DNA of 32,000 nucleotides, taken from Actinospica durhamensis. GTDB taxonomy: Bacteria; Actinomycetota; Actinomycetes; Streptomycetales; Catenulisporaceae. The stretch covers positions 1 to 32,000 of the forward strand of contig NZ_JAGSOG010000033.1 in the NCBI RefSeq assembly GCF_018139695.1, given 5' to 3'. Below are positions 3,438 through 20,352 of the stretch, one piece after another. Under the pieces are notes generated by a model. That model was given only the letters and a program-made list of their open reading frames with translations. It ran no database searches and was not told the DNA's origin. Made by a program: the position numbers and the translations under genes. The number at the start of each line of letters is the position of its first letter. Position 1 is the first letter of the stretch.

Positions 3438-3556
3438 GGTTCGAAGCAGTGCTCTGGGATGATCGACAGGCTGCGCGTGCGGGGGTCTCGGATACGAGAA
3501 GTGCGTCTGACGCGGCTACGAGTTCGGATCAAACTATCTCGCATGGGAGAACAGCT

Positions 3557-4400
3557 TTGCCTGCTCTGAACTTCATCCTGATCGGTGACACGGGGGCCCT
3601 CGCTCGCTGCGGCGAAATCCTCATGGAGAAAGGCCACCGGATCCGGGTGGTGATATCCGGCGACGCCGAGGTCCGCTCCTGGGCGGTCAAGGCCGGAATC
3701 CCCAGTTGTGAACTCGATGACGCGCTCGTCCTCGCGCCGCGGCTCGAGTGCGATCTACTGCTGAGCGTCGGCAATCACGCCATCGTGCCCGCCGCGCTGC
3801 TGGCCTGCGCGAAGCGCATGAGCGTCAACTACCACTACGGCCCGCTGCCCGAGTACGCGGGCCTGAACGCGCCGTCCTGGGCCGTCGCCCACCGCGAGCG
3901 CGAGTACGCCGTGACCTGGCACCGGATCGGCGAACTGGTCGACGGCGGCGACATCCTCAAGCGGATACCGGTGGCGGTCGAGCCCGGTGAGACCGCGTTG
4001 TCGCTGGGCCTGAAGTGTGACGAGGCGGCAGTCGGCAGTCTGGCCGCGCTGATCGACGAGATCGCCGAGGACCGCGTCACCGGCGTCTCCCAGGACCTGG
4101 CCGCACGCCGCTACTTCTCCCGGCACACCCAGCTCCCGGCCGAGGGCCTGATCGACTGGACGATCGGGGCCGACGACATCGTCGCGTTGGTCCGCGCCAC
4201 CGACCACGGGCCGTTCGACAGCCCGCTCGTGTGGCCCAAGGTGGACCTCAACGGGCACATCCTCGCCGTCCGCGCGGCGCACCCCGGCGCAGCCTCCCCC
4301 GGTACCTCGGCCGGGGAGGTCCTCGCATGTGACGACGCGTCCGGCCTGCAGGTGGCCACGGCCTCCGGCACCGTGCACCTGACCCGGCTGTGCACGCTGG
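3557..4400 (+). other. formyltransferase (F) domain, FMT-like N- and C-subdomains (approximate bounds)
   Basis: NFILIGDTGALA is followed by SVNYHYGPLPEYAG, the counterpart of the NxHxSLLPxxRG motif with Asn and His retained. ELVDGGDIL carries the catalytic Asp. LIDWTIGADDIVALVRATDHGP and GEVLACDDASGLQVATASGTVHLTRL match an FMT C-terminal barrel. Confidence 0.8.
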
Positions 4401-7400
4401 AGGGCGCGCCCGTCGCCGTCAGTGCACTGACGACGGGCATGTCGGTGCGGCCGGGACTGATCCTCGCGGCGCCCGGCGACGCGCTGCGCACCGCCATCAC
4501 CGAGGCCGGGACCGCGGCGTCGAAGGCCGCCGGCTACTGGCGCGAGCGCCTGGCCGGCGACGCCCACCCGTTCCGCCTTCCGTTCACGCCGCCGGTCTCC
4601 TCCGGCGCGCAGCAGCGCGTCACCGCGCGGTATCGGATACCCGGCGGAGTCCCAGCTCTCCTCGGCGCGCTCGGCACCTTCCTCGGCCGGGCGAGCATGA
4701 CCGAGAACCTCGTGCTCGCGGTCGCGGCGCCCCGCGACGGAGTCGATGCCGCATACCGGGACCTGTTCGCCGCCTGGCTGCCCCTGCGTGCCGCGTTCGA
4801 CCCCGCCCGCACGGTGGCCGAGAACCTCCAGGCGGTCGCCGAGGAATTCCGCCTCGGCCAGGAGAAGGCATGGCTGCGCCGCGACTTCATCGGGCGCGAC
4901 GCGACGCTCCGGAACCTTTGGGAATCCGGCGATCTGACCCCCGATGTGGCTGTTTCGTGGCCCGGCGCGACCGCGGGCGCGTCCACGTCCGCTGAAGGTA
5001 CCGGCGCACTCGGCCCCGCCCTGGAACTGGCCCTGCGCGAGGACGGGGAGACGGTCGAATTCCTCTTCGACGCCCAGCGCATCGCCCGCCAGGACGTCGT
5101 GCGACTCGCCGGGCAGCTGAGCGACTGGTGCGACCGGCTGCCCGCGCTGGTGGAGGAACCGCTGGCGTCCGTCGACGTTCTCGCCGGGCCGGAGCGCATG
5201 TCGCTGATCGACGCGTTCAACGCCACCGGTGACGACGCGGCTCTGGGGCACCGTCTGCACGAACTGTTCGAGCAGGCAGCCGAGAGCCACGCCGGCGACG
5301 TCGCCGTGATATGCGCCGAGACGCAGCTCACGTATCGGGAGCTCAACGCCGATGCGAACCGCGTCGCGCACGCATTGATCGCGCGCGGAATCGGGCGCGG
5401 CGACTTGGTCGGCCTCGCGCTGGACCGTTCCCTCGACCTCGTCGTGTCGCTGCTGGCCGTGCTGAAGACGGGTGCGGCCTATGTGCCGATCGACCCGGCG
5501 TTCCCGGCCGGACGCATCCGCCAGATGGTGGACAGCGCCGACCCCAAGGTCATCCTCACGCCGGCCGTGACACCGGTGAACCTCGCGTTCTGGGCGGCGC
5601 TCTGCCTGCCGATCGATGACGCGCGGACGCAGGCGGAAGCCGGCACGGACAACCCCGGCGTGCAGGTGGATGCCGACGACCTCGCGTACGTCATCTATAC
5701 GTCCGGTTCGACGGGTGCGCCCAAGGGTGTGGAGATCAGCCACGGCGCGCTGTGCAACTTCCTGCTGTCCATGCGGCGGCAGCCGGGCTGCGCCGAGACG
5801 GACCGGCTGCTCGCCGTCACCACCATCTCCTTCGACATCGCGGCCCTGGAGCTGTTCCTGCCGCTCTTGTCGGGCGCCACGGTGGTCATCGCCCAGGCTC
5901 ACGAGACGATCGACGCCGGCGCGCTGCTCGCCCTGATGCGACGTCACGCGCTCACCATGATGCAGGGCACGCCCGCCACCTGGCAGCTGCTGCTCGACTC
6001 GGGCTGGCACGGCGACCCGCGCTTGGCCACGATCCTGTGCGGCGGCGAGGCGTTGCCGCGTCAGCTGGCCGATCGGCTGCTCGACTGCGGCGACGCCGTG
6101 TGGAACATGTACGGCCCGACGGAGACCACTGTTTGGTCCAGCGTCTGGCACGTGGCGGACGGCGACGTCGTCATCGGCACCCCGATCGCCAACACCCAGC
6201 TCTACGTCCTCGACGCGAACCTGATGCCGGTGCCGGCGGGCTTCCCGGGTGAATTGTGCATCGGCGGCGCCGGTGTGGCGCGCGGCTACCACGGCGACGC
6301 CGAGCAGACCGGGTCCCGGTTCGTCGCCAACCCGTTCCACCCCGGCTCCCTCTACCGCACCGGAGACGTGGCCCGCTTCGTCGCACCGGACGCGCTGAGC
6401 GTGCTCGGTCGCAACGACGGCCAGGTCAAGCTGCGCGGCCACCGCATCGAGCTGGGCGACATCGAGGCGGCGCTGGCCAGCCACGAGGAGATCGCGCGTG
6501 CGGTCGTCATCGGCCGCGACGAGCAGCTGGTCGCCTACTGCGTCCGCGGCGGCGCGCCCTCCGCCGTGCCGGACGAACCGGCGCAGCGCGCGGCACCGGC
6601 CGAGTGGGCCGGCGCCTGGGACCGCGCGTACGAGTCAGAGGCCGACGACGCCGCGTTCAACCTGGCCGGCTGGCACAACAGCTACGACGGCCTGCCGTTC
6701 TCGGCCGCCGAGATGCGCGAGTGGCAGCGCGGCTCGGTCAACCGCATCCTGTCCTACGCGCCGCGCAACGTGTTCGAGATCGGCTCCGGCAGCGGTCTGA
6801 TGATGTTCGGTATCGCGCCGCACTGCGCGGCCTACCACGCCGTCGACGCCTCCGCGCGCGCGGTGGACTCCACCCGGCAGCACCTGGGGTCGCTGCCGCA
6901 CGTCACCTGTGAGCACCGCCCGGCGCACGACCTGCCCGACGTGGCCGAGGGCGCCTTCGACACCGTGATCGTCAACTCGGTGGCCCAGTACTTCCCGAAC
7001 GCCGCGTACCTGACCTCGGTGCTGGCGTGGGCGACCAGGGCGGTGACCGAGGGACGGGTGTTCCTCGGCGACATCCGCGACCTGTCGCTGCTGCGGATGT
7101 TCCACGCCGACGTGATCGACTTCCGCGCGGGCGGCGACATCGAGCCCGACGAACTGGCCCGCCGCGCGGACCAGGCCGTCGCGGCCGAGCGCGAGCTGAC
7201 GCTGGCACCCGCGTACTTCGCCGAGCTGCCCTCGGTGTTCCCGCAGATCACCCGGGTCGAGATCGCCCTGCGCGACGGCCACCACATCAATGAGATGACC
7301 CGTTATCGCTACGATGTGACACTCCATATAGGCGGCAGCGCGGACGTCGCGACATCCGGTGCCGAGCACAGCTGGCCGACACGGCAGCTCGATCTCGCCG

Positions 7401-10400
7401 CGCTGCGCGACCTCGTGGCGGCCGAAGCCGACGGCGGGCCGCTGCGCATCGACGACATCCCCAACGGACGACTCGGCGACGTGCACAGCCGGGTCGCCGC
7501 GGCCCTCGGTCACCCGGCCGAACCGCCGGCGTCCTGGGTGGACCCGCGGGATCTGACCGCCCTGGCCGACGAGGCGGGCGTGAGGCTCGCGCTTGTGCCC
7601 GCGAGCTCCGGCGACCCGTGGGCCTTCGACGCCCTGTTCTGGCAGCCCGGTCAGACGCCGGACCTGAGCCCGCGTCAGAGCGCCACCGCCGTCGACCGCG
7701 CCGCGCCGCATCAGCCCGCGTACACGAACGTGCCCGCGGTGGGGGAGCAGGCCAGGACCCCGCTCGGGCGGGTGCTGCGGCCGTGGCTGGCCGAACGGCT
7801 GCCCGCGTACATGGTCCCGGCGTTCTTCGTCGAGCTGGATCAGTTCCCGCTCACGCCCAACGGCAAGATCGACCGCGCGGCGCTGCCGGATCCGGTGGCC
7901 GAGTTCGAGGCGACGGCCAAGCCGGCCACCGAGCTCGAGCGCGACATCCTGGCCGTGTGGTCCGAGGTTCTGGGCCACGACCACATCGGCGTCAACCAGA
8001 ACTTCTTCGAGATCGGCGGCAACTCCCTGCGCGTCGTGCGCGTGCAGACCCAGCTGGAGAAGCTGCTGGGCCGGCCGGTCTCCGCGGCCAAGCTGTTCGA
8101 GCACTTCACCGTCAAGGCCCTCGCGGCGCACCTGGCCGGCGCCGCGACCACCCGCAAGGCTCCGATCCCGGCCCGTCGGCGCTCTGTCGACGAACCCATC
8201 GCCATCGTGGGCATGGCCTGCCGGCTGCCCGGCGAGGTGACCAGCCCGGAGGAGTTCTGGGAGCTGCTCGAACGCGGCGTCGACGGGATCGTGGAGGTTC
8301 CGCCGGACCGGTGGGACGCCGCGGCCATCTACGACCCCGACCCGGAGGCGCGCGGCAAGTCCATCTCCAGCCGTGGCGGCTTCGTCACCCCCATCGACCT
8401 GTTCGACGCCCCCTTCTTCGGCATCTCCCCGCGCGAGGCCAGGGCGATGGATCCGCTCCAGCGCCTGATGCTGGAGACCACGTGGGAGGCGTTCGAGCGG
8501 GCCGGGTACACCTTGGAGGAGCTGCGCGGCAGCCAGACCGGCGCGTTCGTCGGCGTCGGCAAGAGCGCGGGGTACCGCGAGTACGGCATCACCACGGGCG
8601 GCAGCATCGCCGACCTGGACGGGTACGTGGGCCCCGGCTCGGCCGGCGCCACCGCCTCGGGCCGGCTCTCGCACGTGTTCGGCCTCGAAGGCCCCACCAT
8701 GACCGTGGACACGGCCTGCTCCTCGTCCCTGGTGACCACCCACCTGGCCGCCAACGCGCTGCGCAACGGCGAATGCGACCTGGCCGTGTCCGGTGGCGCG
8801 ACCCTGATGCTCACCTCCAACATGCACGTGGAGTTCAGCCGTCTGCGCGGCATGTCGCCGGACGGGCTGTGCCGGTCCTTCTCCGCCGACAACGACGGCA
8901 CCGGATGGAGCGAGGGCGTCGCCGTCGTCATCCTCAAGCGGCTGTCCGACGCGCAGCGCGACGGCGATCCCGTCCTGGCCGTGCTGCGCGGCACCGCGGT
9001 CAACCACGACGGCCACGCCGCCAGCCTGACCACGCCCAGCGGACCCGCCCAGCAGCAGGTCATCCGCGCGGCCCTCGGCGCTTCGGGCCTGCAGCCGGAG
9101 GACATCGACTACCTGGAGGCGCACGGCACCGCCACCCGGCTCGGCGACCCCATCGAGGGCACCGCCCTCGGCGAGGTCTTCGGCGGCAGCCACCCCGCCG
9201 AGCCGCTGTGGGTCGGCTCGGTCAAGTCCAACCTCGGCCACACGCAGGCGGCCGCGGGCCTGGCCGGCGTGATGAAGATCGTGCTCGGCCTGCAGCACCA
9301 CCTGATCCCGCGCACCCTGCACGTCTCCGAGCCCTCACCCGCGGTGGACTGGGCGGGCGCGAACATGGCCCTGGTCCAGCAGGCTCAGCCGTGGCCGCCG
9401 AAGGACCGGCCGCGCCGCGGCGGGGTCAGCTCTTTCGGCATCGGCGGCACCAACGCGCACATCATCGTGGAGGAGCCGCCCGCCCCCGTCGAAGCGGACA
9501 AGCCCGCGGCGCCGCTGCCGCCGACCCTGCCCTTCCTCGTCTCCGGCTTCACCGACACCGCCCTGCGCCAGCAGGCGGAGGCGCTGCACCAGCACCTGGG
9601 CATGAACATCCAGGACCGCCTCGTCGACGTGGCGTACTCGCTGGCCGCGACGCGCAGCCACTTCCGCAAGCGGCTCGTGCTGATGGCCAGGGACAAGGCC
9701 GACCTGCTGGACAAGCTCGGCTCCTACGCCCGCAGCGGCGAGGTCCCGGCCGACGCCGTGCGCACCGGGGACCGCAGCGAGGATCCGCGACTCGCGCTGC
9801 TGTTCACCGGCCAGGGCAGCCAGTGGTCGGGCATGGGCAAGGACGTGTACGCGACCTACCCGGTGTTCCGCGCGGCGGTGGACGAGATCGCCGCCCACTT
9901 CACCGAGCTGGACCGGCCGCTGCTCGACGTCATGTGGGCCGACGACAGCGAGGACGCCGCGCTGCTGCACCGCACCGACTTCACCCAGCCGGCCCTGTTC
10001 ACCCTCGAGGTGGCGCTGTGGCGGCTGTGGCACAGCTGGGGCGTGCGGCCGGACCTGTTGGCGGGTCACAGCATCGGCGAGCTCGCGGCCGCCCACGTCG
10101 CAGGGGTCTTCGACCTGGCCGACGCCTGCCGCCTGGTGGGCGCCCGCGGCCGGTTGATGCAGGCGCTGCCCAGCCGTGGCGCGATGGCGTCGCTGGAGGC
10201 CACCGGCCCCGAAGCCGAAGCCGCGCTGGAGGAGCTGGGCCTGGCCGGCAAGGTCGACCTGGCCGGCCTCAACACGCCGACCCAGACCGTCGTCTCCGGC
10301 GACGCCGACGCCGTGCAGGCCCTGGTCGCGCACTTCGCCGCGCACGACCGCCGGGTCAAGGAACTGACCGTCTCGCACGCGTTCCACTCGCACCACATGG

Positions 10401-13400
10401 ACGGCATGCTGGCGCAGTACAGGGCCGTCGCCGAGACCGTGGCGTTCCACCCGCCCGCGCTGCCGTTGGTCAGCAGCCTGACCGGGGTCTCGGCCGCGCC
10501 GGGCGAGCTGGAGCAGGCCGAGTACTGGGTGCGGCAGGTGCGCCACGCCGTACGGTTCGGCGACAGCGTCGCGACGCTCCACCAGGAGGGTGTGAACATC
10601 TTCCTGGAGCTCGGCCCGCAGCCGGTGCTCTCCGGCATGGGTGCGGCGTGCCTGGCCGACGAGACCGGGCTGGCCTGGGTTGCGTCGCTGCAGGCGGGCA
10701 AGGACGGCTCCTCCGTCCTGCAGCGCGGCCTCGCCGACCTGCACGTGCTGGACGCGCCGATCGACTGGCGCGGCTGGTTCGCGCCGTTCGGCGCCGCGAT
10801 GGTGGAGCTGCCGACCTACGCCTTCCAGCGCGAGCGGTTCTGGTTCGATCCGCCGGCCCCGCGCTCGGTCGGCGCGGGCCTCGACGACACCGACCACCCG
10901 CTGCTCGGCGGCCTGGTCCGGATCGCCGGGACCGACTTGACGGTGTTCACCACCGTCGTGGCCTCCGACGAGCCGGCCTGGGTGCAGGACCACCAGATCA
11001 TGGGCACCGTCCTGATGCCGGGCACCGCGTACCTCGAGGCCATGCGTGCCGCCGGCGACGCCAGTGCGCCCGGCGACTGGGACGTGGCCGACGTCGGCTT
11101 CCTCTTCCCGATGGTGCTCACCAAGGGCACGTCCGCCCGGCTCCAGGTGACGGTGGGTCAGGAGTCCGACGGAGGCCGTGCGGTCCAGGTCTACAGCGCG
11201 CCCGACCGCGAGGACGGCGAGTGGCAGCTGCACGCCGAGGGCCGGATCGTGCCCGCGCAGCCCGGCCCGGGCGTCACGGTGACGCTGCCGCCGGCCGGGG
11301 CCGAGCGCCTCGACGTGTCCGCGCTGTACTCCGATCTGGACGAGCTCGGCTACGAATTCGGCCCGTTGTTCCAGGGCATCAAGGAGGCCTGGCAGGTCGA
11401 CGGGATGGTCTGGGCCCGCGCGGCCCTGCCCGAGGACAGCACGCACACCGCCGGCGACTACGTGCTGCACCCGGCCCTGATGGACTCGGCGATGCAGACC
11501 CTGCTGTTCAGCATGCGGCTGCAGAACACCGACCCCGACGACGTGCTCGTGCCGTACGAGGCGCAGCGCATGTCGATGCGGCGCAGGGGCCTGTCGGAGG
11601 TCTGGGTCCGCGTCGCGCGGTTCGAACTCGGCGAGGGCGAGTTCCGCGCGTCCCTGGACTTCTTCGACCCGGCCGGCGAGAACATCGGCGGGCTGCACGA
11701 GATGCACGCGCGGCGGGTGGACCGGGCGGTGCTGCGCCGGCTGGCCGCGGCCGGAGTGGACCGGTTCCAGTTCGAGGTCGACTGGAAGCCGGTCGGCACC
11801 GACAAGGTCGAGATCGGCGGCTCCTGGGGCCTGCTGTCCCCGGCCGGCGACGTGGCCTGGGGGCGCGAGGTCAAGACCGCCCTGAGCCGGGCCGGGGTCC
11901 AGGCGTTCAAGGTCCGCGACCTCGAGGAGGCGCAGGACCTGGACGGCGTGCTCTGCCTGTGGGATGCCGCAGACCCGACCCGGGCACTCGAGCTGGCCGG
12001 CAAGGCGCTCGCCCAGCTGCACGAGGCGGCCGAGTCCGGATTCGTACCGCCGCTGGTCTGGCTGACCCGCGGCGCGGTGGGCACCGACGCCGACGACATG
12101 GCCTCCGGGCTCGCGTCCGCGCCGCTGTGGGGCCTGATGCGCACCGCCCGCAGCGAGAATCCGGACCTGGCACTGCGTCTGATCGACCTCGGCGACGAGG
12201 AGCCCGACCTGCAGGCGCTCGCTCCGGCACTGATGCTGGCCGCGGAACCCGAATGCGCCCTGCGCCACGGCCAGGCGCTCGTCCCGCACCTGCAACGGGC
12301 CGGCGCCGGCGGCGAGCTGACGCTCCCGGCGGAGGGCCGCTGGCAGCTGGAGATCGCCGCCAAGGGCCGTCTGGACCAGCCGTTGACCGTCCGCAGAGTC
12401 ACGCCGAAGCCCCTGGCCGCCGGGGACATCCGGGCCGAGGTGAAGGCCACCGGCGTGAACTTCCTCGACGTGCTCAACGCGCTGGGGATGGTGGAGCTGC
12501 CGGTGTTCGGCATGGAGTTCGCCGGCGTCGTCACCGAGGTCGGCTCCGGGGTCAAGGACCTGAAGGTCGGCGATCCGGTGCTGGGCCTGGGCCAGGGCTC
12601 GTTCGCCTCCGAGGTGTCCACGGACGCGCGCTGGGTGGTGCGCATCCCGGACAACCTGAGCTTCGAGGAGGCCGCCACCATCCCGATGACGTTCCTGTCG
12701 GCGTGGTTCGGCCTGCACGAGCTGGGCGCGCTGCGGCCGGGTGAGCGGGTGCTGATCCACGCGGCCGCGGGCGGCGTCGGCATGGCGGCCGTGCAACTCG
12801 CGCAGCTGCACGGGGCCGAGGTGTACGGCACCGCCAGCGAGCCGAAGTGGGCGGCGCTGCGCGAACTCGGGCTCGACGACGACCACATCGCCTCGTCCCG
12901 GGACCTGGGCTTCGTCGAGTCCTTCGGCCGCACCGCGCCCGGACGCGGCTTCGACGTCGTGCTCAACTCGCTGGCCGACGAGTTCATCGACGCGGGCCTC
13001 GGGATGCTGGCCGCCGGCGGCCGCTTCCTGGAACTCGGCAAGATCGACCTGCGCGAGCAGGCCTGGGTGGACGAGAACCACCCGGGGGTGAAGTACCGGG
13101 TCTACCACCTGCTCGAGGCGGACCCCGACCTCATGCACACGATGCTGGTGTCCCTGGCCGAGCTGCTCGGGGCCGGCAAGCTCAAGCCGCTGCCGCTGCG
13201 CACCTTCCCGATCACGGCCACCTCCGACGCCCTGCGCTTCATGGCCCAGGCGCGGCACGTGGGCAAGGTGGTGCTGGTTCCCACGGAGCACAAGGAGTTC
13301 ATCCGGCCGGAAGGGGCCGTGCTGATCACCGGCGGCCTCGGCGCACTCGGCCGGCACGTCGCCATCTGGCTCGCGACCACGCACGGGGTCCGCGACTTCG

Positions 13401-15631
13401 TGCTCACCTCGCGCCGCGGCCCGGACGCCGCCGACGCCGAGGTGCTGGTGGCCGTCCTCGGCGCGCTCGGCGCCACCGCGACGGTGGTCGCCGCCGACGC
13501 GGCCGACGGGGACAGCATGAAGTCGGTGCTTTCGCTCTTCGACGCGGACCGTCCGCTGCGCGGCGTGGTCCATGCCGCGGGCGTGCTCGACGACGGCGCC
13601 CTCTCGGCTCTGACACCGGAACGGCTCGCGACCGTGTTCCTGCCCAAGGTGGACGGCGCCTGGCACCTGCACCGCCTGACGCAGGATCTGGACCTGGACT
13701 TCTTCCTGCTGTTCTCCTCGATCTCCAACGTGCTCGGCGCACCGGGCCAGGGCAACTACGCGGCCGCCAACGCGTTCCTCGACACGCTCGCGCACCTGCG
13801 CCGGGCCCAGGGCCTGCCGGCCACCTCGGTGGCATGGGGCCCGTGGGACGGCGACGGCATGGCCGCCGGACTCAGCGAGCGCGACCAGGTCCGGATCGCC
13901 CGTACGGGCCTTGACGGAATCTCCGCGGACGAAGGCCTGGAACTGCTCGAGGCGGCGGTGCGCAGCGGCCGCGCGTTGACGGTGGCGGCCGCGCTGGATC
14001 TCGGCCGCATCCAGACCTACTACGTGGAGCAGGGAGGCGTGCCGCCGCTGTTGCGCTCGCTGCTGAGCTCCCACTCCGGTGAGAACAGCCAGCGCGCCAA
14101 GGGCGACGGCGGCGCCGGACTGCGCCGGCTGTTGGGCCAGACCACGCCCGAGGAGCAGGTGAACGTCGTCCTCGACCTGGTCCGGGGCGGGGTGGCCAAG
14201 ACCCTGGGCTTCGCCTCGCTCTCCGACGTGGACGTGAACCTGCCGCTGCAGGACATCGGCATCGACTCGCTGACCGCCGTCCTGATGCGCAATCAGCTCG
14301 CGGACATGACCGGCCTTGCGCTGCCGGCCAAGATCGCCTTCGACCACCCGGACCTGACGTCGCTGTCCCAGTTCCTGCTGGCGAAGCTGCAGGAGCGCGG
14401 CCTCGACGCACCGGTCGAGGCGTCCGCCGACACGGGCGGGAGCCCGGCCGAGCCGGCCAACGCGGCCGGCCTGGACATGGCGCCGGTACGCAAGGGCTAC
14501 CTCGACCCGCAGCTGCGCTTCGACAACGCCCGCGACACCCTGGACCGTCCGGAGTCGGTGTTCCTGACCGGCGCCACCGGCTTCGTCGGCGCATTCCTGC
14601 TGCGCGAACTGCTCGAGGCCGGCATATCAGCGCACTGTCTGGTCCGGGCACCCGATCCGGAGGCGGCGACGCAGCGACTGGTCACCGCCCTGTCGAGCTA
14701 TGGGATGTGGGACGAGCGCTACGCGTCGCTGCTGCACCCGGTGGTGGGCGATCTGTCCCAGCCCCTGTTCGGACTGTCGCAGGAGACGTTCGACCAGCTC
14801 GCCGACGAGGTCGACGCCGTCTGCCACTCCGGCGCCCTGGTCGACTGGATGCGGCCGCTGAACGAGTACATCGGCCCCAACGTGATCGGCGTACACGAGG
14901 CACTGCGGCTGGCGTCGCAGGGCCGTGGCAAGGCGGTGCACGTCATGTCCACCTTCGGCACGCTGCCCCGATACCTGGGCTTCGAGGTCAAGCCGGACGA
15001 GGCGGAGTACGGCTACGTCACCTCCAAGTGGATGGCCGAGCAGATGGTGATCGCGGCGCGCTGGCGCGGCGCCAAGGCCTCGGTGTACCGGCTGCCGTTC
15101 GTGGGCCCGTCCGCGGGCACCGGCCACTTCCGGCTCGACCGCGGCGACTTCCTGCACAACCTGATCGTCGGCTGCATGGCCATGGGCAGCTACCCGACCA
15201 CGAACGCGAGCATGGCGGCCGTCCTGCCGGTGGACTACCTGTGCCGGACCGTCGCGGCGGTGCTGACCGAGGAGCGCGAGCACATCGGCCGGGACTACGA
15301 CTTCGTCAACGCCGAGGCGCCGAGCTTCAACGCCTTCTTCGAACTGGTCGCCGCGGCCGCGGGCGAGGGGGAACTGGTGCCGTTCGACGCGTGGAAGCGG
15401 CGCGCGCTGGACTACGCGGCCGCGCATCCGACCAGCGCGATGGCCCGCATCGGCGCGCTGGTGGACGGCCTGACGCCGGACAACCTGACGCTCACGTTCG
15501 GCGCCGGCCTCACCGGCGAGCACGTGTTCGGCGGCGCCGACCACCCCGCCCCGCGGCTCGGGGAGCAGTTCGCGGCGATGTACGTGGACCGCATCACCGC
15601 CGCCGAGACGTCCGCGGCCGTCACGGCCTGA
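3557..15631 (+). CDS. single-module hybrid NRPS-PKS megasynthase: F, C-relic, A(Gly)/nMT, T, KS, AT, DH, ER, KR, ACP, R
   Basis: One continuous frame carries all domain signatures (see the domain features below). The track start (GTG 3416) lies inside the putative promoter, and codons 3449-3556 are only about 50% G/C at position 3 by my count. G/C at position 3 rises after 3557. TTG 3557 is preceded by GGGAGA (3545-3550) and immediately begins the Rossmann strand PALNFILIGD. The start is therefore approximate (3557 or CTG 3566). The stop is TGA 15629-15631. Confidence 0.93.
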   Translation: MPALNFILIGDTGALARCGEILMEKGHRIRVVISGDAEVRSWAVKAGIPSCELDDALVLAPRLECDLLLSVGNHAIVPAALLACAKRMSVNYHYGPLPEYAGLNAPSWAVAHREREYAVTWHRIGELVDGGDILKRIPVAVEPGETALSLGLKCDEAAVGSLAALIDEIAEDRVTGVSQDLAARRYFSRHTQLPAEGLIDWTIGADDIVALVRATDHGPFDSPLVWPKVDLNGHILAVRAAHPGAASPGTSAGEVLACDDASGLQVATASGTVHLTRLCTLEGAPVAVSALTTGMSVRPGLILAAPGDALRTAITEAGTAASKAAGYWRERLAGDAHPFRLPFTPPVSSGAQQRVTARYRIPGGVPALLGALGTFLGRASMTENLVLAVAAPRDGVDAAYRDLFAAWLPLRAAFDPARTVAENLQAVAEEFRLGQEKAWLRRDFIGRDATLRNLWESGDLTPDVAVSWPGATAGASTSAEGTGALGPALELALREDGETVEFLFDAQRIARQDVVRLAGQLSDWCDRLPALVEEPLASVDVLAGPERMSLIDAFNATGDDAALGHRLHELFEQAAESHAGDVAVICAETQLTYRELNADANRVAHALIARGIGRGDLVGLALDRSLDLVVSLLAVLKTGAAYVPIDPAFPAGRIRQMVDSADPKVILTPAVTPVNLAFWAALCLPIDDARTQAEAGTDNPGVQVDADDLAYVIYTSGSTGAPKGVEISHGALCNFLLSMRRQPGCAETDRLLAVTTISFDIAALELFLPLLSGATVVIAQAHETIDAGALLALMRRHALTMMQGTPATWQLLLDSGWHGDPRLATILCGGEALPRQLADRLLDCGDAVWNMYGPTETTVWSSVWHVADGDVVIGTPIANTQLYVLDANLMPVPAGFPGELCIGGAGVARGYHGDAEQTGSRFVANPFHPGSLYRTGDVARFVAPDALSVLGRNDGQVKLRGHRIELGDIEAALASHEEIARAVVIGRDEQLVAYCVRGGAPSAVPDEPAQRAAPAEWAGAWDRAYESEADDAAFNLAGWHNSYDGLPFSAAEMREWQRGSVNRILSYAPRNVFEIGSGSGLMMFGIAPHCAAYHAVDASARAVDSTRQHLGSLPHVTCEHRPAHDLPDVAEGAFDTVIVNSVAQYFPNAAYLTSVLAWATRAVTEGRVFLGDIRDLSLLRMFHADVIDFRAGGDIEPDELARRADQAVAAERELTLAPAYFAELPSVFPQITRVEIALRDGHHINEMTRYRYDVTLHIGGSADVATSGAEHSWPTRQLDLAALRDLVAAEADGGPLRIDDIPNGRLGDVHSRVAAALGHPAEPPASWVDPRDLTALADEAGVRLALVPASSGDPWAFDALFWQPGQTPDLSPRQSATAVDRAAPHQPAYTNVPAVGEQARTPLGRVLRPWLAERLPAYMVPAFFVELDQFPLTPNGKIDRAALPDPVAEFEATAKPATELERDILAVWSEVLGHDHIGVNQNFFEIGGNSLRVVRVQTQLEKLLGRPVSAAKLFEHFTVKALAAHLAGAATTRKAPIPARRRSVDEPIAIVGMACRLPGEVTSPEEFWELLERGVDGIVEVPPDRWDAAAIYDPDPEARGKSISSRGGFVTPIDLFDAPFFGISPREARAMDPLQRLMLETTWEAFERAGYTLEELRGSQTGAFVGVGKSAGYREYGITTGGSIADLDGYVGPGSAGATASGRLSHVFGLEGPTMTVDTACSSSLVTTHLAANALRNGECDLAVSGGATLMLTSNMHVEFSRLRGMSPDGLCRSFSADNDGTGWSEGVAVVILKRLSDAQRDGDPVLAVLRGTAVNHDGHAASLTTPSGPAQQQVIRAALGASGLQPEDIDYLEAHGTATRLGDPIEGTALGEVFGGSHPAEPLWVGSVKSNLGHTQAAAGLAGVMKIVLGLQHHLIPRTLHVSEPSPAVDWAGANMALVQQAQPWPPKDRPRRGGVSSFGIGGTNAHIIVEEPPAPVEADKPAAPLPPTLPFLVSGFTDTALRQQAEALHQHLGMNIQDRLVDVAYSLAATRSHFRKRLVLMARDKADLLDKLGSYARSGEVPADAVRTGDRSEDPRLALLFTGQGSQWSGMGKDVYATYPVFRAAVDEIAAHFTELDRPLLDVMWADDSEDAALLHRTDFTQPALFTLEVALWRLWHSWGVRPDLLAGHSIGELAAAHVAGVFDLADACRLVGARGRLMQALPSRGAMASLEATGPEAEAALEELGLAGKVDLAGLNTPTQTVVSGDADAVQALVAHFAAHDRRVKELTVSHAFHSHHMDGMLAQYRAVAETVAFHPPALPLVSSLTGVSAAPGELEQAEYWVRQVRHAVRFGDSVATLHQEGVNIFLELGPQPVLSGMGAACLADETGLAWVASLQAGKDGSSVLQRGLADLHVLDAPIDWRGWFAPFGAAMVELPTYAFQRERFWFDPPAPRSVGAGLDDTDHPLLGGLVRIAGTDLTVFTTVVASDEPAWVQDHQIMGTVLMPGTAYLEAMRAAGDASAPGDWDVADVGFLFPMVLTKGTSARLQVTVGQESDGGRAVQVYSAPDREDGEWQLHAEGRIVPAQPGPGVTVTLPPAGAERLDVSALYSDLDELGYEFGPLFQGIKEAWQVDGMVWARAALPEDSTHTAGDYVLHPALMDSAMQTLLFSMRLQNTDPDDVLVPYEAQRMSMRRRGLSEVWVRVARFELGEGEFRASLDFFDPAGENIGGLHEMHARRVDRAVLRRLAAAGVDRFQFEVDWKPVGTDKVEIGGSWGLLSPAGDVAWGREVKTALSRAGVQAFKVRDLEEAQDLDGVLCLWDAADPTRALELAGKALAQLHEAAESGFVPPLVWLTRGAVGTDADDMASGLASAPLWGLMRTARSENPDLALRLIDLGDEEPDLQALAPALMLAAEPECALRHGQALVPHLQRAGAGGELTLPAEGRWQLEIAAKGRLDQPLTVRRVTPKPLAAGDIRAEVKATGVNFLDVLNALGMVELPVFGMEFAGVVTEVGSGVKDLKVGDPVLGLGQGSFASEVSTDARWVVRIPDNLSFEEAATIPMTFLSAWFGLHELGALRPGERVLIHAAAGGVGMAAVQLAQLHGAEVYGTASEPKWAALRELGLDDDHIASSRDLGFVESFGRTAPGRGFDVVLNSLADEFIDAGLGMLAAGGRFLELGKIDLREQAWVDENHPGVKYRVYHLLEADPDLMHTMLVSLAELLGAGKLKPLPLRTFPITATSDALRFMAQARHVGKVVLVPTEHKEFIRPEGAVLITGGLGALGRHVAIWLATTHGVRDFVLTSRRGPDAADAEVLVAVLGALGATATVVAADAADGDSMKSVLSLFDADRPLRGVVHAAGVLDDGALSALTPERLATVFLPKVDGAWHLHRLTQDLDLDFFLLFSSISNVLGAPGQGNYAAANAFLDTLAHLRRAQGLPATSVAWGPWDGDGMAAGLSERDQVRIARTGLDGISADEGLELLEAAVRSGRALTVAAALDLGRIQTYYVEQGGVPPLLRSLLSSHSGENSQRAKGDGGAGLRRLLGQTTPEEQVNVVLDLVRGGVAKTLGFASLSDVDVNLPLQDIGIDSLTAVLMRNQLADMTGLALPAKIAFDHPDLTSLSQFLLAKLQERGLDAPVEASADTGGSPAEPANAAGLDMAPVRKGYLDPQLRFDNARDTLDRPESVFLTGATGFVGAFLLRELLEAGISAHCLVRAPDPEAATQRLVTALSSYGMWDERYASLLHPVVGDLSQPLFGLSQETFDQLADEVDAVCHSGALVDWMRPLNEYIGPNVIGVHEALRLASQGRGKAVHVMSTFGTLPRYLGFEVKPDEAEYGYVTSKWMAEQMVIAARWRGAKASVYRLPFVGPSAGTGHFRLDRGDFLHNLIVGCMAMGSYPTTNASMAAVLPVDYLCRTVAAVLTEEREHIGRDYDFVNAEAPSFNAFFELVAAAAGEGELVPFDAWKRRALDYAAAHPTSAMARIGALVDGLTPDNLTLTFGAGLTGEHVFGGADHPAPRLGEQFAAMYVDRITAAETSAAVTA
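4535..5180 (+). other. condensation-domain relic (C-terminal lobe only, no HHxxxDG)
   Basis: YWRERLAGDAHPFRLPF and LFAAWLPLRAAFDPARTVAENLQAVAEEF resemble the segments that follow core C3 (C4/C5 region) in NRPS C domains. No HHxxxDG or N-terminal lobe motifs are visible anywhere upstream. Confidence 0.55.
5185..7890 (+). other. adenylation domain, predicted glycine-specific, interrupted by a methyltransferase
   Basis: Core motifs: LTYRELN, LKTGAAYVPIDP, LAYVIYTSGSTGAPKG, FDIAALE, NMYGPTETT, GELCIGGAGVARGY, YRTGD, GRNDGQVKLRGHRIELGDIE, LPAYMVP, PNGKIDR. My hand-extracted Stachelhaus positions give D-I-L-Q-L-G-M-V-W-K, which matches the glycine code DILQLG(L/M)(I/V)WK. Confidence 0.85.
6600..7650 (+). 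other. embedded SAM-dependent N-methyltransferase domain (between A8 and A9)
   Basis: VFEIGSGSG (SAM motif I), DTVIVNSVAQYFPNAAYL, INEMTRYRYDVTL and IPNGRLGDV form the signature set of NRPS N-MT domains. Confidence 0.8.
7930..8140 (+). other. peptidyl carrier protein (T) domain
   Basis: FFEIGGNSL, with the phosphopantetheinyl Ser codon at 8024-8026. Confidence 0.9.
8200..9480 (+). other. ketosynthase (KS) domain, catalytically complete
   Basis: EPIAIVGMACRLPG, DTACSSSLV (Cys codon 8717-8719), EAHGTATRLGDPIE, GSVKSNLGHTQAAAG, GGTNAHIIVEE. Confidence 0.93.
9790..10640 (+). other. acyltransferase (AT) domain, malonyl-CoA-type
   Basis: FTGQGSQWSGMG, GHSIGELAAAH (Ser codon 10070-10072) and the HAFH motif (VSHAFHSHHM). 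HAFH is the accepted malonyl signature, whereas methylmalonyl AT domains have YASH. Confidence 0.85.
10893..11760 (+). other. dehydratase (DH) domain
   Basis: HPLLGG, HQIMGTVLMPG (HxxxGxxxxP), LGYEFGPLFQG (GYxYGPxF) and HPALMDSAMQ (DxxxQ) are all intact. Confidence 0.85.
12334..13283 (+). other. enoylreductase (ER) domain
   Basis: MDR fold: GVNFLDVLNALGM and LIHAAAGGVGMAAVQLAQLHGAEVYGTAS (NADPH site), ending HVGKVVLVP. Confidence 0.85.
13319..13870 (+). other. ketoreductase (KR) catalytic subdomain, B-type (LDD)
   Basis: VLITGGLGALGRH (NADPH), HAAGVLDDG (LDD motif), SSISNVLGAPGQGNYAAANAFLD (Ser/Tyr/Asn). The putative structural subdomain lies between DH and ER (about 11760-12330). Confidence 0.85.
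14150..14395 (+). other. acyl carrier protein (ACP) domain
   Basis: LQDIGIDSLTAVLMRNQL, with the Ser codon at 14267-14269. Confidence 0.9.
14558..15600 (+). other. terminal thioester reductase (R/TD) domain
   Basis: VFLTGATGFVGAFLLRELL (TGxxGxxG) and YGYVTSKW (YxxxK) on an SDR fold of about 350 aa at the C-terminus. No TE domain is present. Confidence 0.88.
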
Positions 15632-15706
15632 CCCACAGCGCACCACCGGACGGAGCCGGCCGGCGACGGGCGGCTCCGGCCCCGAACACCAGGAGGATGG
15701 AACGGT

Positions 15707-17026
15707 ATGAGTGCTCAGTCCGAGCTGAAGCAGGCGAACGAGCCCGTCATGACGGGCACCTATCAGAAGAGCGGCACCTTCCTGCACTCCTCCGCCGGTG
15801 CGCACGCCGAGAAGCTGATGCCCGTCCTGGAGAAGTATCCGGTGAGCCAGGAGGAGGTGGACTCGCGGCTGCCGCCCAAGCGCGTGCTGAACCCGAGCTG
15901 CTTCCACCCCGAGGAGACCCCGACCGTCGTCGAGCAGATGAACCTCGACGACGACCTCGCCGAGAACCTGGCCCGGCAGCTGCGGTGCCAGGCCGTGATC
16001 CAGGAGAGCTTCGCCGCGGCGTCGATCGGCAACTACTTCCCGCTCTCGACGATGTTCGAGAACTGCGTGCTGTTCATCCCGTCGGCCAAGCGCTTCTACG
16101 ACCTCAACCAGGAGATCGTCCACAAGCACTTCCCCGAGGTGGAGACCGCGGTGGTCAACGCCTTCGTGGTCACCGCCAACAAGCGCTCCTACGGCACCCA
16201 CTCCGCCAGCGGCATCGCGTTGCAGATCCCGTCCCTGGTGAAGAAGCGGCTGGGCTTCCCGACCGAGTACCGCAGCTTCCACACCGCGCTCACCCCGACG
16301 CCGCTGGACCGCCAGCCGTTCGTGATCTTCGAGGATGCCGAGGAGGAGGCCCCCAACCTCCAGTACGCGTACGAGAAGATCCTGGAGTGCGGCGTGGACA
16401 AGGAGGAGAAGGCCGCCGTCGACAAGGCCCTGTACCTCTTCCTCGAAGGCAAGCTCTCCGAGATCGACCTGCCCACCGTGCGGGACTTCATGATGGCGAA
16501 GTACTGGGAGAAGCGTTACGCCGACACTCCGTCCCCCGGCTACTACTGCGACTCGCGGGTCGGCGACGCCCTCGTGTTCGACAACTACCGGGCGCACGGC
16601 GACTGCACCCTGCCCGGCTCGCCGAACGACCGGCTGACCATCGACTTCCGCTGCTTCAACAAGGTGCACTACCCGGCCGGCATGTCCGGCGGCCTCGACT
16701 TCATCGTCGACCCGGACGAGCGCGACTACCAGATCAAGCGCAAGCGGGACTCGATCGAGTTCCTGCTCCTGACGCTGGGCTACGAGAGTATCGACGAGTT
16801 CCTGCGGCTGGTGTTCGGCGCGCGCGGCACGGACGAGATCAACCCGTTCGAGCTCATGACCGACCTGCAGTTCGGCGTCTACAACAAGTCCAGGTACCAC
16901 CTGCTGGACCAGAACCTCGACGACCACTACGAGCGGGTGGAACGGCTCTACGCGCGGATCGAGCAGACCGGCGAGTACATCCTGCCGCAGAGCGCGAAGC
17001 AGCGTCTCGAGGCGCTTGCGCAGTAG
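15707..17026 (+). CDS. orphan 439-aa protein; possible PhyH-like non-heme Fe(II)/2-oxoglutarate-fold enzyme (function unassigned)
   Basis: AGGAGG (15691-15696) lies 10 nt upstream of the ATG, and third-position G/C is very high, so it is clearly coding. It sits 75 nt after the megasynthase stop and 12 nt before the MFS gene. GDALVFDNYRAHGDCTLPGSPNDRLTIDFR resembles the distal His/Arg strand of PhyH-type oxygenases and halogenases. No canonical HxD/E was identified. The confidence value refers to the gene being real, not to its function. Confidence 0.75.
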   Translation: MSAQSELKQANEPVMTGTYQKSGTFLHSSAGAHAEKLMPVLEKYPVSQEEVDSRLPPKRVLNPSCFHPEETPTVVEQMNLDDDLAENLARQLRCQAVIQESFAAASIGNYFPLSTMFENCVLFIPSAKRFYDLNQEIVHKHFPEVETAVVNAFVVTANKRSYGTHSASGIALQIPSLVKKRLGFPTEYRSFHTALTPTPLDRQPFVIFEDAEEEAPNLQYAYEKILECGVDKEEKAAVDKALYLFLEGKLSEIDLPTVRDFMMAKYWEKRYADTPSPGYYCDSRVGDALVFDNYRAHGDCTLPGSPNDRLTIDFRCFNKVHYPAGMSGGLDFIVDPDERDYQIKRKRDSIEFLLLTLGYESIDEFLRLVFGARGTDEINPFELMTDLQFGVYNKSRYHLLDQNLDDHYERVERLYARIEQTGEYILPQSAKQRLEALAQ

Positions 17027-17038: not shown

Positions 17039-18460
17039 ATGACCGAGATCACCGCCACGTCCACCGACGCCCCCACCGAGGCGTCCGCCCGAGGACTGCT
17101 GGCCATCGTGCTCACCGGGGTGTTCATCGCCACCCTGGATGTGGCCATCGCCAACGTCGCCGCGCCGCGCATCGGCACCGACCTGCACGCCACCGGCGCC
17201 GACCTGCAACTCGTGGTCGCCGGCTACATGATCACCTACGCCGTCCTGATCGTCACCTGTGCGCGCCTGGGCGACCTGGCCGGCCGCAGGAACATGTTCC
17301 TCGCCGGCGTCGCGCTCTTCACGCTGGCGTCCTTGGCCTGCGGCGTGGCCTGGGCGGCCGTGCCGCTGATCGTCTTCCGGTTCGTGCAGGGCGCCGGCGC
17401 CGCGCTGATGGTGCCTCAGGTGCTCAGCCTCATCCAGCTGCATTTCAAGGACGGCGCCCGGGCCAAGGCCCTGAGTACCTACGCCGCGGTGATCGCCTGC
17501 GGCGCGATCGCCGGCCAGATCGTCGGCGGCGTCCTGGTCAACGCCGACCTCTGGGGCAGCCAGTGGCGGCCGGTGTTCCTGGTCAACGTGCCGATCGGCC
17601 TGGTACTGCTGGTCGCCGGCGCGCGGGCGCTGCCCAAGGACAACGGCCATCCGGGCCGCAGACTCGATCTGCCCGGCCTCGCCACCTTGTCCCTGGCCGT
17701 GTTCGCCCTGGTGCTGCCGTTGGTCCTCGGCCACCAGCTGGGTTGGCCGACGTGGACCTGGGTGAGCCTGGCGCTGTGCGCGGTGTTCGTGGCGCTCTTC
17801 GTCCTGGTCGAGCGTCGAGCGTCGCGCACCGGCGGCTCGCCGCTGATCCGCGGCGACCTGCTGCGCGCGCCCGGCATGCTCGTCGGCGCGTCGGGCCTGC
17901 TCGCCGCCACGGCCAACTACGCCGGGATCCTGTTCCTGATCACGCTCTACGTCCAGGAGGGCCTGGGCCACGGCGCGCTGGTCGCCGCCATGGTGTTCCT
18001 GCCCAGCGCGGTCGCGTTCGGCTTCGCCAGTCTGAGCTGGCGAAAGCTACCCGCGGCGTGGCACCGCTCGCTGGCTCCGGCAGGCCTCGGTCTCACGACC
18101 CTGGCGTTCCTCGGGCTCGCCCTCACCATGCGCGGCGGCCATATCAGCGTATGGATGGAACTGTGCATCCTGTGCTTCGGACTCGGCATGGGAACGGCGT
18201 TCAGCCCCATGTTCACGATCGCGTTCTCGAAGGTGCCCCCGATCTACGCCGCGGACGCCAGCGGCGTGCTCACCACGGTGAACCAGCTCGGCCAGGTCAT
18301 CGGCGTCGCGGTCTACGGCTCGGTGTTCCTGAGCCTGTTCCACACCCCGTCCGACGCGCCGCACGCGGCCCTGGTCACCACGCTGGTGATGGCCTGCGGA
18401 AGCGTGTTCGGCTCGCTGATCTCGCTCGGCCTGCCCCGCAACACCCCGAAGGGAGCCTGA
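17039..18460 (+). CDS. MFS transporter, DHA2 (EmrB/QacA-like, 14-TMS size class) probable exporter
   Basis: 473 aa and hydrophobic throughout. The N-terminal FIATLDVAIANVAAPRI and LGDLAGRRNMFLAGVALFTLASLACG are typical DHA2 motifs. Confidence 0.88.
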   Translation: MTEITATSTDAPTEASARGLLAIVLTGVFIATLDVAIANVAAPRIGTDLHATGADLQLVVAGYMITYAVLIVTCARLGDLAGRRNMFLAGVALFTLASLACGVAWAAVPLIVFRFVQGAGAALMVPQVLSLIQLHFKDGARAKALSTYAAVIACGAIAGQIVGGVLVNADLWGSQWRPVFLVNVPIGLVLLVAGARALPKDNGHPGRRLDLPGLATLSLAVFALVLPLVLGHQLGWPTWTWVSLALCAVFVALFVLVERRASRTGGSPLIRGDLLRAPGMLVGASGLLAATANYAGILFLITLYVQEGLGHGALVAAMVFLPSAVAFGFASLSWRKLPAAWHRSLAPAGLGLTTLAFLGLALTMRGGHISVWMELCILCFGLGMGTAFSPMFTIAFSKVPPIYAADASGVLTTVNQLGQVIGVAVYGSVFLSLFHTPSDAPHAALVTTLVMACGSVFGSLISLGLPRNTPKGA

Positions 18461-18532: not shown

Positions 18533-19405
18533 ATGCTGATTCCCATGAGCACTCACCCCGCACGGCGGCTCTGGCACAGCCTGGAGGCGCTTTACCAGCC
18601 GGCCCTGTTGGTGGACGACACCCGCGACGCCGGAGCGGCTCTCGGTCTGCGCGGATTCTGGATGGCCTTCCTCGCCTTCCGGGCGGCTCCGCTCGGCGCG
18701 GTGAGCGCCGCGACCGCGACCGCGGCGTTCGGCGGATTCGCGCCGGGCAAGGTGGCCAAGGCCATCCCGGGGGCCTGGGCGACGGCGTCCCCGGCGGACT
18801 GCGTCGCCAGCCGCAACGCGCTGGCCGGCAAGCTGCTGCGCAGCGCGGGCGTCACCGAGGAGGCCGCCGCACCCCTGGTCGAGCGGCTGGCGGCGTTGCC
18901 CGCGGCCCTCGAACCGACGGGCCGTCCGCTCGGCGCCGCCAACGCCGCCCTCCCGCTCCCGGAAGATCCGATCGCGGCGCTGTGGCAGCTCGCCGGCACG
19001 GTCCGCGAGTACCGCGGCGACGGCCATGTGGCCTCCTGGGTCGCCGCGGGCGTGAGCGGCCTGGAGTCCCACCACCTGCTCACCGCCGGCCGCGCGGCCG
19101 ACGTGGCGATGATGCGCGAGATACGCGGCTGGACCGCCGAGGAGTGGTCCGCGGCGGCCGAGGCGCTGACCGCCCGCGGCCTGCTCGACGCCACCGCGGG
19201 CACCCTCACCGACACCGGCCTGCGCCTGCGCGCCCAGGTCGAGCGGCAGACCGACGAGCTCTCCTGGTCCGGCGGCATGTCCGTGCTGGGTGAAGACGGC
19301 GTCGCAGAGATCTGCGCGGCTCTCGCTCCGGTGGTGAGATCCGTCCGCGACTGCGACATGGCGCCCCTGCTCACCCTGCTCGCCCCCGACGTCGACGAGG
19401 CCTGA
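18533..19405 (+). CDS. conserved actinobacterial protein, SCO6745-like (possible C-terminal winged-helix)
   Basis: The layout PARRLWHSLEALY...GLRGFWMAFLAFRAAPLG...REYRGDGHVASW...GLESHHL matches what I recall of the SCO6745 family. The start could be ATG 18533 or 18545. Assignment is from memory only. Confidence 0.55.
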   Translation: MLIPMSTHPARRLWHSLEALYQPALLVDDTRDAGAALGLRGFWMAFLAFRAAPLGAVSAATATAAFGGFAPGKVAKAIPGAWATASPADCVASRNALAGKLLRSAGVTEEAAAPLVERLAALPAALEPTGRPLGAANAALPLPEDPIAALWQLAGTVREYRGDGHVASWVAAGVSGLESHHLLTAGRAADVAMMREIRGWTAEEWSAAAEALTARGLLDATAGTLTDTGLRLRAQVERQTDELSWSGGMSVLGEDGVAEICAALAPVVRSVRDCDMAPLLTLLAPDVDEA

Positions 19406-20312: not shown

Positions 20313-20352
20313 GGACGGCTCCTTCGTTCCGGGCGGGTGCCCGGTCGGCTTC

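Follow-up and report, generated by a model that had tools for sequence, protein, structure and literature searches.

A widespread family of PhyH-type proteins with a putative two-histidine iron site, encoded beside a formylating megasynthase in Actinospica durhamensis and other bacteria

The DNA analysed here, referred to as the window, is a stretch of 32,000 nucleotides from the actinomycete Actinospica durhamensis (NCBI RefSeq assembly GCF_018139695.1, contig NZ_JAGSOG010000033.1, positions 1 to 32,000 of the forward strand). Its subject of interest is a gene for a protein of 439 amino acids (aa), annotated as the hypothetical protein KDL01_09645 (100% match to P0001 among the retrieved proteins), which lies directly downstream of a gene for a large megasynthase and which we read as very likely encoding a divergent PhyH-type enzyme dependent on Fe(II) and 2-oxoglutarate (2OG). 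The features that define this gene pair are as follows.

3416..15631, + strand: partner megasynthase of 4071 aa, with the Pfam domain order F - A(Gly) with inserted N-methyltransferase - T - KS - AT(malonyl) - DH - ER - KR - T - R
15691..15696, + strand: Shine-Dalgarno sequence AGGAGG, 10 nt 5' of the ATG, read from the sequence
15707..17026, + strand: gene for the 439-aa protein, predicted to be of the PhyH/SyrB2-like, two-His Fe(II)/2OG type (open reading frame, translation and ATG start)

An original prediction made from the letters alone had called the gene clearly coding, with a strong ribosome-binding site and a high third-position G+C content, and this description holds: AGGAGG stands 10 nt from the ATG, and the G+C content at third codon positions (GC3) is 0.970. 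The same prediction described the gene as translationally linked, which is too strong a term, because the stop codon of the megasynthase and the ATG are 75 nt apart and the gene possesses its own ribosome-binding site; only the downstream transporter gene lies close, at a distance of 12 nt.

Sequence searches place the protein in no recognised family, as had been anticipated. Neither the 439-aa protein nor either of the two family profiles gave a match in Pfam, NCBIfam or the PDB sequences, no Pfam family was returned for the protein even at E <= 1 or 10, and phmmer and hmmsearch comparisons of the family with the PDB sequences gave no match to known halogenases. The label of orphan does not fit, as the protein belongs to a conserved family comprising 127 clusters at 90% identity and 56 genomic loci, all without names; the 127 relatives, found among 5.8 billion cluster representatives, are all listed as hypothetical and none carries a Pfam domain. 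A profile search of 1.84 billion representatives returned only 75 clusters, among them more remote proteins some 500 residues long, again without a Pfam match. The connection with Pfam PhyH runs through superfamily members that contain an ordinary H-x-D motif, namely P0188 (25.6 bits, threshold 22) and P0187 (E = 0.008); for the 439-aa protein itself the profile link is transitive only, through these two members, with no direct match at the curated threshold, and P0188 found no match among the PDB sequences.

The AlphaFold2 model of the protein, based on a 36-sequence alignment, has a mean predicted local distance difference test score (pLDDT) of 90.7 and a predicted template modelling score (pTM) of 0.88. 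When the model was compared with the PDB by Foldseek, the 50 top-ranking matches were PhyH-type Fe(II)/2OG enzymes without exception (E from 1.6e-4, probability 1.00, target-normalised TM score 0.4-0.5, identity 10-14%); they include SptF, FtmOx1, TlxIJ, AusE/PrhA/AndA, AsqJ, ThoJ, EasH and PtlH, as well as the halogenase WelO5 (E = 9.6e-4). The model contains a double-stranded beta-helix core that is superimposable on solved PhyH-type members according to Foldseek, and the PhyH/SyrB2-type fold guessed from a by-eye alignment is thus upheld by both the model and the exclusively PhyH-type matches; the outcome named in advance as refuting it, a model without a cupin or double-stranded beta-helix fold, did not arise. 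This core is decorated by an N-terminal helical region, a helical C-terminal third (residues 330-439) and an insert that separates its two halves and that has no counterpart in SyrB2 in the hhalign alignment.

16319..16531, + strand: family-specific three-helix insert (residues ~205-275) between the halves of the beta-helix core, with DSSP helices at residues 218-228, 232-246 and 255-270

Residues H165 and H297 are each an isolated beta-bridge residue in the model, which would fit two neighbouring strands facing one metal. We regard it as very likely that the protein is a PhyH-type enzyme of the iron/2OG class, albeit a highly divergent one.

Both motifs on which the original prediction had rested, GTH165SA167SG and GDALVFDNYRAH297GD...R309LTIDFR315, are present in the translation, with a spacing of 132 residues between the two histidines; the spacing of 119 given for SyrB2 was verified on the PDB sequence (2fct). 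The codons concerned, together with those of a further conserved strand, are located as follows.

16193..16207, + strand: G163-T-H165-S-A167, with the putative proximal iron His and an Ala at the usual place of Asp/Glu; invariant; aligns with SyrB2 H116/A118
16274..16282, + strand: S190-F-H192, predicted strand of the 2OG pocket; invariant or nearly so; aligns with SyrB2 T143/W145
16583..16603, + strand: N293-Y-R-A-H297-G-D299, with the putative distal iron His, Asn293 and Asp299; invariant; aligns with SyrB2 S231...H235-A-S237
16631..16651, + strand: R309-L-T311-I-D313-F-R315, predicted clamp for the 2OG C5 carboxylate (R-x-S/T) and a second Arg; aligns with SyrB2 R248/R254

Conservation of these motifs is far beyond chance. 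Twelve residues (G163, H165, A167, S190, H192, N293, H297, D299, R309, T311, D313 and R315) are invariant in the 36-sequence alignment, which extends down to 41% identity, and R309-x-T311 stands at position +12 from the distal His, with R309 and R315 found in essentially all relatives. When all 195 retrieved proteins were aligned to the family hidden Markov model (HMM), the full pattern of H-x-A, H192, H-x-D, R309 and R315 was present in 139 of the approximately 157 that could be aligned. In the wider superfamily, at 17-31% identity, invariance is confined to three residues, H165, F291 and H297, with H192, R309 and R315 nearly invariant; H165 and H297 are the sole invariant histidines. No conventional HxD/E triad was found, Ala167 being invariant in the clade. 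The proposal of a His-x-Ala iron site accordingly stands at the level of sequence, through the invariance of H165 and H297, the register with SyrB2 and the missing triad, but it had overlooked the invariant Asp299, two residues past the distal His. A three-His site that would also use H192 was considered and rejected, H192 aligning with Trp145 of SyrB2, deep in the 2OG pocket.

Position 167 is occupied by Asp, giving a normal H-x-D motif, only in P0159, P0187 and P0188, the three most distant members. Because distant H-x-D members match Pfam PhyH, column 167 can be taken as the carboxylate position and Ala as the derived residue; as read from the alignment, the carboxylate was lost secondarily and its absence was then conserved from actinomycetes to Proteobacteria. 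The change did not occur in isolation, as A167 covaries with N293 and D299: members with H-x-D carry Pro293 and Ser/Thr299, and those with H-x-A carry Asn and Asp, respectively. The exchange of Pro293, four residues before the distal His, for Asn resembles a second-sphere adaptation of the halogenase type. The role of Asp299 constitutes the main uncertainty, as this residue could be a relocated carboxylate ligand or a residue of the 2OG pocket. About ten deep lineages have a carboxylate at neither 167 nor 299, and therefore Asp299 does not appear to be an obligatory ligand. Taking these sequence comparisons together, we consider that the iron site is probably a true two-His site.

The sequences of SyrB2 and CytC3, which are carrier-dependent Fe(II)/2OG aliphatic halogenases (PDB entries 2fct and 3gja), were taken from the PDB for profile alignment, and the profile was later enlarged to 120 sequences (118 retrieved homologues and the two PDB sequences). 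The alignments were made with hhalign in local mode, since global mode gave a meaningless terminal alignment owing to the 70-residue insert. The register was the same in three runs: H165, A167, S190, H192 and F291 correspond to H116, A118, T143, W145 and F229 of SyrB2, and N293, H297, D299, R309 and R315 to S231, H235, S237, R248 and R254. In SyrB2, R248 and W145 reportedly bind the C5 carboxylate of 2OG, and T143, R254 and S231 are said to lie near its C1 carboxylate and the chloride. We trust this register because it is reproducible and agrees with the fold and the conservation pattern, and not on account of its significance. SyrB2 and CytC3 share with the present family the His-x-Ala proximal motif and the distal His, an Arg 12-13 residues past the distal His with a second Arg another six residues along, a polar side chain at the fourth position ahead of the distal His, a strand of the form Ser/Thr-x-aromatic/His, and genes that adjoin carrier-protein assembly lines. 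They differ in several respects: identity is only about 11-17%, with no significant sequence match; SyrB2 has 310 residues, compared with the 439 found here, where a helical insert of 70 residues and extended helical ends are added; Asp299 and His192 take the places of Ser237 and Trp145; and all relatives of SyrB2 are recognised by Pfam PhyH, whereas the 439-aa protein is not.

A scan of 185,579 species genomes yielded 56 loci of the family, in Streptomyces, Kitasatospora, Nocardia, Actinoplanes, Streptacidiphilus, Solirubrobacteraceae, several Achromobacter species, Ramlibacter, Sulfurifustis, Granulosicoccaceae and Pseudovibrio. The co-occurrence with F-A-T-polyketide synthase (PKS) genes is strongly positive: in all 55 informative loci (those of the clade of at least 62% identity that have upstream DNA), the T-R end of a megasynthase lies some 20-200 nt directly upstream of the gene. 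More distant family members adjoin PKSs, or genes for an acyl carrier protein (ACP), KAS III, a thiolase and an MBOAT protein, or genes for a phosphopantetheinyl transferase (PPTase) and a nonribosomal peptide synthetase (NRPS), and carrier-protein chemistry is therefore the common theme. In Achromobacter the enzyme is 67-69% identical to the actinomycete protein, which indicates inter-phylum transfer of a small-molecule pathway.

The megasynthase allows a prediction of what this pathway would build. The specificity code of its adenylation (A) domain, DILQLGMVWK, matches the published glycine codes DILQLGMIWK and DILQLGVI (PMC12283262, PMC5466765), and the insert within this domain bears the motifs of NRPS N-methyltransferases. 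The formyltransferase (F) domain retains the N-x-H...D catalytic residues, and the acyltransferase (AT) domain has the malonyl motif HAFH. From this domain order, the product would be the very small 4-(N-methylformamido)butanal or the corresponding alcohol, and the N-formyl cap plausibly prevents self-release as a gamma-lactam. An oxazole pathway such as that of conglobatin was ruled out, there being no cyclodehydratase and an N-methyltransferase being present.

The gene product is most simply read as a radical enzyme of the PhyH/SyrB2 type, an obligate partner of the upstream megasynthase, for which halogenation is a possible outcome that we put forward only tentatively. In the proposed reaction, Fe(II) would be held by H165 and H297 only, with 2OG chelating the iron; R309, T311 and H192 would grip the C5 carboxylate of 2OG, and R315 and S190 would lie close to its C1 side. 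Next to the coupled second-sphere Asn293, Ala167 would leave a coordination site free for an exogenous anion, most likely chloride. Activation of O2 would give a ferryl species that abstracts hydrogen from the megasynthase-built chain, predicted to be N-formyl-N-methyl-glycine extended by one fully reduced malonate, that is, 4-(N-methylformamido)butanoyl-S-T on the carrier arm; the radical would then be caught by the iron-bound chloride and the reductase (R) domain would release the aldehyde. In favour of a carrier-dependent, halogenase-like function, the gene adjoins a megasynthase with two T domains and relatives adjoin carrier genes, as SyrB2-type enzymes do; from this genomic context the substrate is rather more likely carrier-bound than free. 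Stated in full, the proposal is that the protein would be the founding member of a Pfam-invisible clade of carrier-dependent Fe(II)/2OG halogenases (or anion-transfer enzymes), derived from an H-x-D PhyH ancestor by the coupled changes D167A, P293N and S299D and fixed in a mobile two-gene cassette with which Streptomyces, Nocardia, Achromobacter and marine Proteobacteria would make a small halogenated N-formyl-N-methyl amino-aldehyde; as a whole it is somewhat more doubtful than the halogenation outcome taken alone.

Several observations weigh against this proposal. The hhalign statistics against SyrB2 are weak (E = 0.012-0.03 at full length and 5.7e-4 for the C-terminal core), and the 120-sequence SyrB2/CytC3 profile gave E = 0.03, the larger profile bringing no gain in significance, with all 118 SyrB2 homologues at least 67% identical. 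Asp299, which covaries with Ala167 across 139 sequences, might coordinate the iron or interfere with the binding of 2OG. On the predicted substrate there are few positions at which halogenation would make chemical sense, no halogen-handling accessory gene is evident at the cassette loci, and megasynthase variants that lack the enoylreductase (ER) domain retain the same partner enzyme. One family member stands beside isocitrate lyase and malate synthase, the sole context observed without a carrier. Finally, a two-His site does not imply halogenation. His-x-Ala had been called the hallmark of Fe/2OG halogenases, which proves insufficient for such an assignment because for AspH, a 2OG hydroxylase in which two His are the only iron ligands, no halogenase activity was observed, and the authors of that work conclude that more than the number of ligands sets the outcome (PMC6817910).

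The strongest competitor to halogenation, and one that we consider about as credible as the complete halogenase proposal while still short of probable, is that the protein acts as an Fe(II)/2OG-dependent hydroxylase, as a desaturase or as some further kind of oxygen-transfer enzyme, either with a relocated triad of H165, H297 and D299 or with an AspH-like two-His site. On an N-formyl-N-methyl C4 chain such an enzyme might hydroxylate the carbon beside nitrogen, desaturate the chain to an enamide or remove the formyl group oxidatively via a carbamate and loss of CO2, and the reactive C-H bonds beside nitrogen or on the formyl group would suit oxygenation better than chlorination. The best structural matches are oxygenases, AspH supplies a precedent for hydroxylation at a two-His site, and D299 occurs throughout the clade and covaries with A167, the H-x-D members having Ser or Thr at this position. 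That a His and an Asp can share one metal when two positions apart is known from the normal H-x-D motif. The relocated triad is opposed by those lineages that have a carboxylate at neither position, and no 2OG oxygenase is known to us in which the carboxylate has moved naturally. Moreover, the residue two positions past the distal His is Ser237 in SyrB2 and the Ser of 'HGS' in PhyH, which, from the PHD2 and PhyH structures, we take to line the 2OG pocket without reaching the metal, and this counts against Asp299 as a ligand. A further and unlikely alternative is an enzyme that keeps the scaffold and the iron but departs from the usual use of 2OG: its open site would be filled by a substrate oxygen from a formyl group, an aldehyde hydrate or a carboxylate, and Asp299, lying in the usual 2OG pocket, would disfavour 2OG or select another co-substrate. 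Asp299 and Asp313 would place two acidic residues in a pocket that is normally basic and polar only, and the family has diverged beyond recognition by any profile. Set against this are R309-x-T311 at the canonical distance and the universal H192 and R315; because these residues are conserved even in the H-x-D members that match PhyH, the 2OG site appears to have been retained.

It is also conceivable, at a very low probability, that the protein has no catalytic activity and serves the megasynthase structurally, as a chaperone or docking subunit, having kept no more than an oxygenase-like fold. Its strict pairing with the megasynthase and the large helical additions at the N terminus and at residues 205-275 and 330-439 would suit such a role, but the presumed catalytic residues are invariant across long evolutionary distances, which is unexpected for a pseudo-enzyme, and relatives occur with quite different partners.

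Other characterised systems help to locate the halogenase-like proposal and its alternatives. SptF, FtmOx1, AusE/PrhA, AsqJ, TlxIJ, EasH and ThoJ, the best structural matches, share the double-stranded beta-helix core; SptF, FtmOx1, AusE/PrhA and the others carry H-x-D/E and use free substrates, whereas the family described here carries H-x-A and is built differently at its periphery. Human AspH is alike in being a 2OG oxygenase with two His iron ligands only and an R-x-S clamp for 2OG (PMC6817910), and unlike in belonging to another subfamily, as a eukaryotic endoplasmic reticulum enzyme that acts on EGF domains and contains a TPR domain; no sequence relationship to it was detected. WelO5, BesD and HalA have a two-His site with His-x-Gly in place of His-x-Ala, and the combination of carboxylate loss with a second-sphere Asn parallels the coupled A167/N293 pair. 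In HalA, the switch to a halogenase starts from a lysine hydroxylase and needs an Asp-to-Gly exchange together with second-sphere Asn and Ile residues, of which the Asn is essential (bioRxiv 10.1101/2024.09.19.613983). These enzymes act on free indole alkaloid or amino-acid substrates and belong to different subfamilies, and an equivalence of N293 with Asn224 of HalA is only a supposition. For the megasynthase, the nearest parallels are conglobatin CongA, oxazolomycin OzmO, rhizopodin and the linear gramicidin LgrA, in which an N-terminal F domain acts on a carrier-bound amino acid (Gly in CongA) and, in the polyketide cases, the formylated starter is passed to a PKS for extension (PMC4504003). 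The F-Gly starter of conglobatin and oxazolomycin goes together with an oxazole-forming, ATP-dependent cyclodehydratase; the present system has an N-methyltransferase insert and, in place of a cyclodehydratase, a PhyH-like partner. In addition, the starters of CongA, OzmO, rhizopodin and LgrA all feed long chains, in contrast to the single fully reducing module and reductive release of the present system.

The fold and the type of chemistry are known; what is new is an H-x-A clade invisible to profiles, with coupled second-sphere changes, large insertions and a megasynthase partnership fixed over four bacterial classes. Literature searches, which also covered Achromobacter NRPS-PKS clusters with formyl chemistry, found no published description of the cassette or the family. 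Fe/2OG halogenases are in demand as catalysts that functionalise unactivated C-H bonds. Only a handful of their clades are known, and a further one that escapes profile detection and has arrived at the Asn293/Asp299 solution would, if the halogenase assignment is true, widen this set and offer a natural experiment on the conversion of a hydroxylase to a halogenase. A second possible novelty concerns Asp299: were it a metal ligand, the site would be a natural example of a relocated facial triad. In either case, the two-gene cassette, with its very small predicted product, spans four bacterial classes and occurs in Achromobacter and Nocardia, both opportunistic pathogens.

The composition of the protein had also been described as atypical, rich in Glu, Lys, Phe, Tyr, Asn and Asp and poor in Ala, Arg and Gly. 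This is correct for most of these residues in comparison with the megasynthase (439-aa protein and megasynthase, respectively: Ala 7.7 and 14.5%, Gly 4.8 and 9.5%, Lys 5.0 and 1.5%, Tyr 5.0 and 1.6%, Phe 5.5 and 3.3%, Asn 3.6 and 1.6%, Glu 8.7 and 5.6%) but not for Arg, which is barely lower (5.7 and 6.6%), nor for Asp, which is not enriched (6.6 and 7.0%). The gene has an overall G+C content of 0.652 and 0.366 at second codon positions, and its homologues lie about five G+C points below their megasynthase genes in Achromobacter, Nocardia, Streptomyces and Pseudovibrio, that is, in every host checked. Recent horizontal acquisition as the source of the low G+C content is ruled out because GC3 reaches 0.97 and the same offset recurs in each of these hosts. 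The low G+C content and unusual composition are a conserved property of the protein family and no sign of recent transfer.

Two further genes follow on the same strand.

17039..18460, + strand: DHA2-family efflux transporter of the major facilitator superfamily (MFS), the probable product exporter in this lineage (Pfam MFS_1, E = 6e-44; NCBIfam EmrB-type)
18533..19405, + strand: SCO6745-family helix-turn-helix protein, the probable cluster regulator (PF21863, E = 4.7e-76; NF047719)

Both genes are common only to the three closest relatives (loci L011-L013). At about 44 of 57 cassette loci, the gene directly downstream instead encodes an esterase-type alpha/beta-hydrolase of 260 aa, often with a second hydrolase; in Nocardia brasiliensis the hydrolase gene overlaps the enzyme gene by 4 nt. 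A role for these accessory hydrolases as dehalogenases was rejected, as they are generic BioH/PcaD-like esterases and are not found in the window. A Rieske oxygenase is further encoded at 13 proteobacterial loci; its best match, below threshold, is the N-demethylase GbcA, and it too is absent from the window. Examples of these accessory genes lie at positions 11332-12114 in L017, 11431-14415 in L002 and 11332-14850 in L045-L050.

Some additional observations concern the megasynthase and the wider family. The megasynthase architecture (formyltransferase, glycine A domain interrupted by an N-methyltransferase, T, single reducing PKS module, T and reductase) is rare, and its annotated GTG start is perhaps some 45 codons too early, the formyltransferase fold seeming to begin near 'NFILIGDTG'. 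At loci L037-L041, L043 and L058 (L040 and L043 being from Streptomyces iranensis), the megasynthase is about 300 residues shorter in the DH-ER-KR region; these short forms probably lack the ER domain, which would give an unsaturated product. S. iranensis has two copies of the cassette, one towards each end of the chromosome (~0.1 Mb and ~12.1 Mb), which presumably lie within terminal inverted repeats. The Achromobacter loci L044-L050 come from the opportunistic lung pathogens A. pulmonis, A. ruhlandii, A. pestifer and an A. xylosoxidans metagenome-assembled genome (MAG). A Candidatus Multivoradales MAG (L001/L064 and L061) encodes two paralogues, of 44% and 49% identity, without a megasynthase, one of them between isocitrate lyase/malate synthase genes and an arylsulfotransferase-like gene. 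The distant proteins of about 500 aa (P0124-P0141) keep H-x-A and H-x-D and have signal-peptide-like N termini, a conserved Cys and C-terminal tails that are hydrophobic plus basic; they sit on single-gene contigs of 1.6-3.7 kb and may be eukaryotic, perhaps algal, transcripts.

Elsewhere in the window, a 602-codon open reading frame on the minus strand (19482-21290) contains a MerR domain at residues 331-400; with a GC3 of 0.713 and 18.9% Arg, it is probably over-extended at its 5' end, the real gene being much shorter. The biosynthetic locus here appears to comprise only the megasynthase, the 439-aa enzyme, the MFS transporter and regulators. The region 26245-31974, also on the minus strand, encodes secreted carbohydrate-active proteins (GH18/CBM5_12, CBM6/CBM35 and a ricin-type lectin) unrelated to the cassette.

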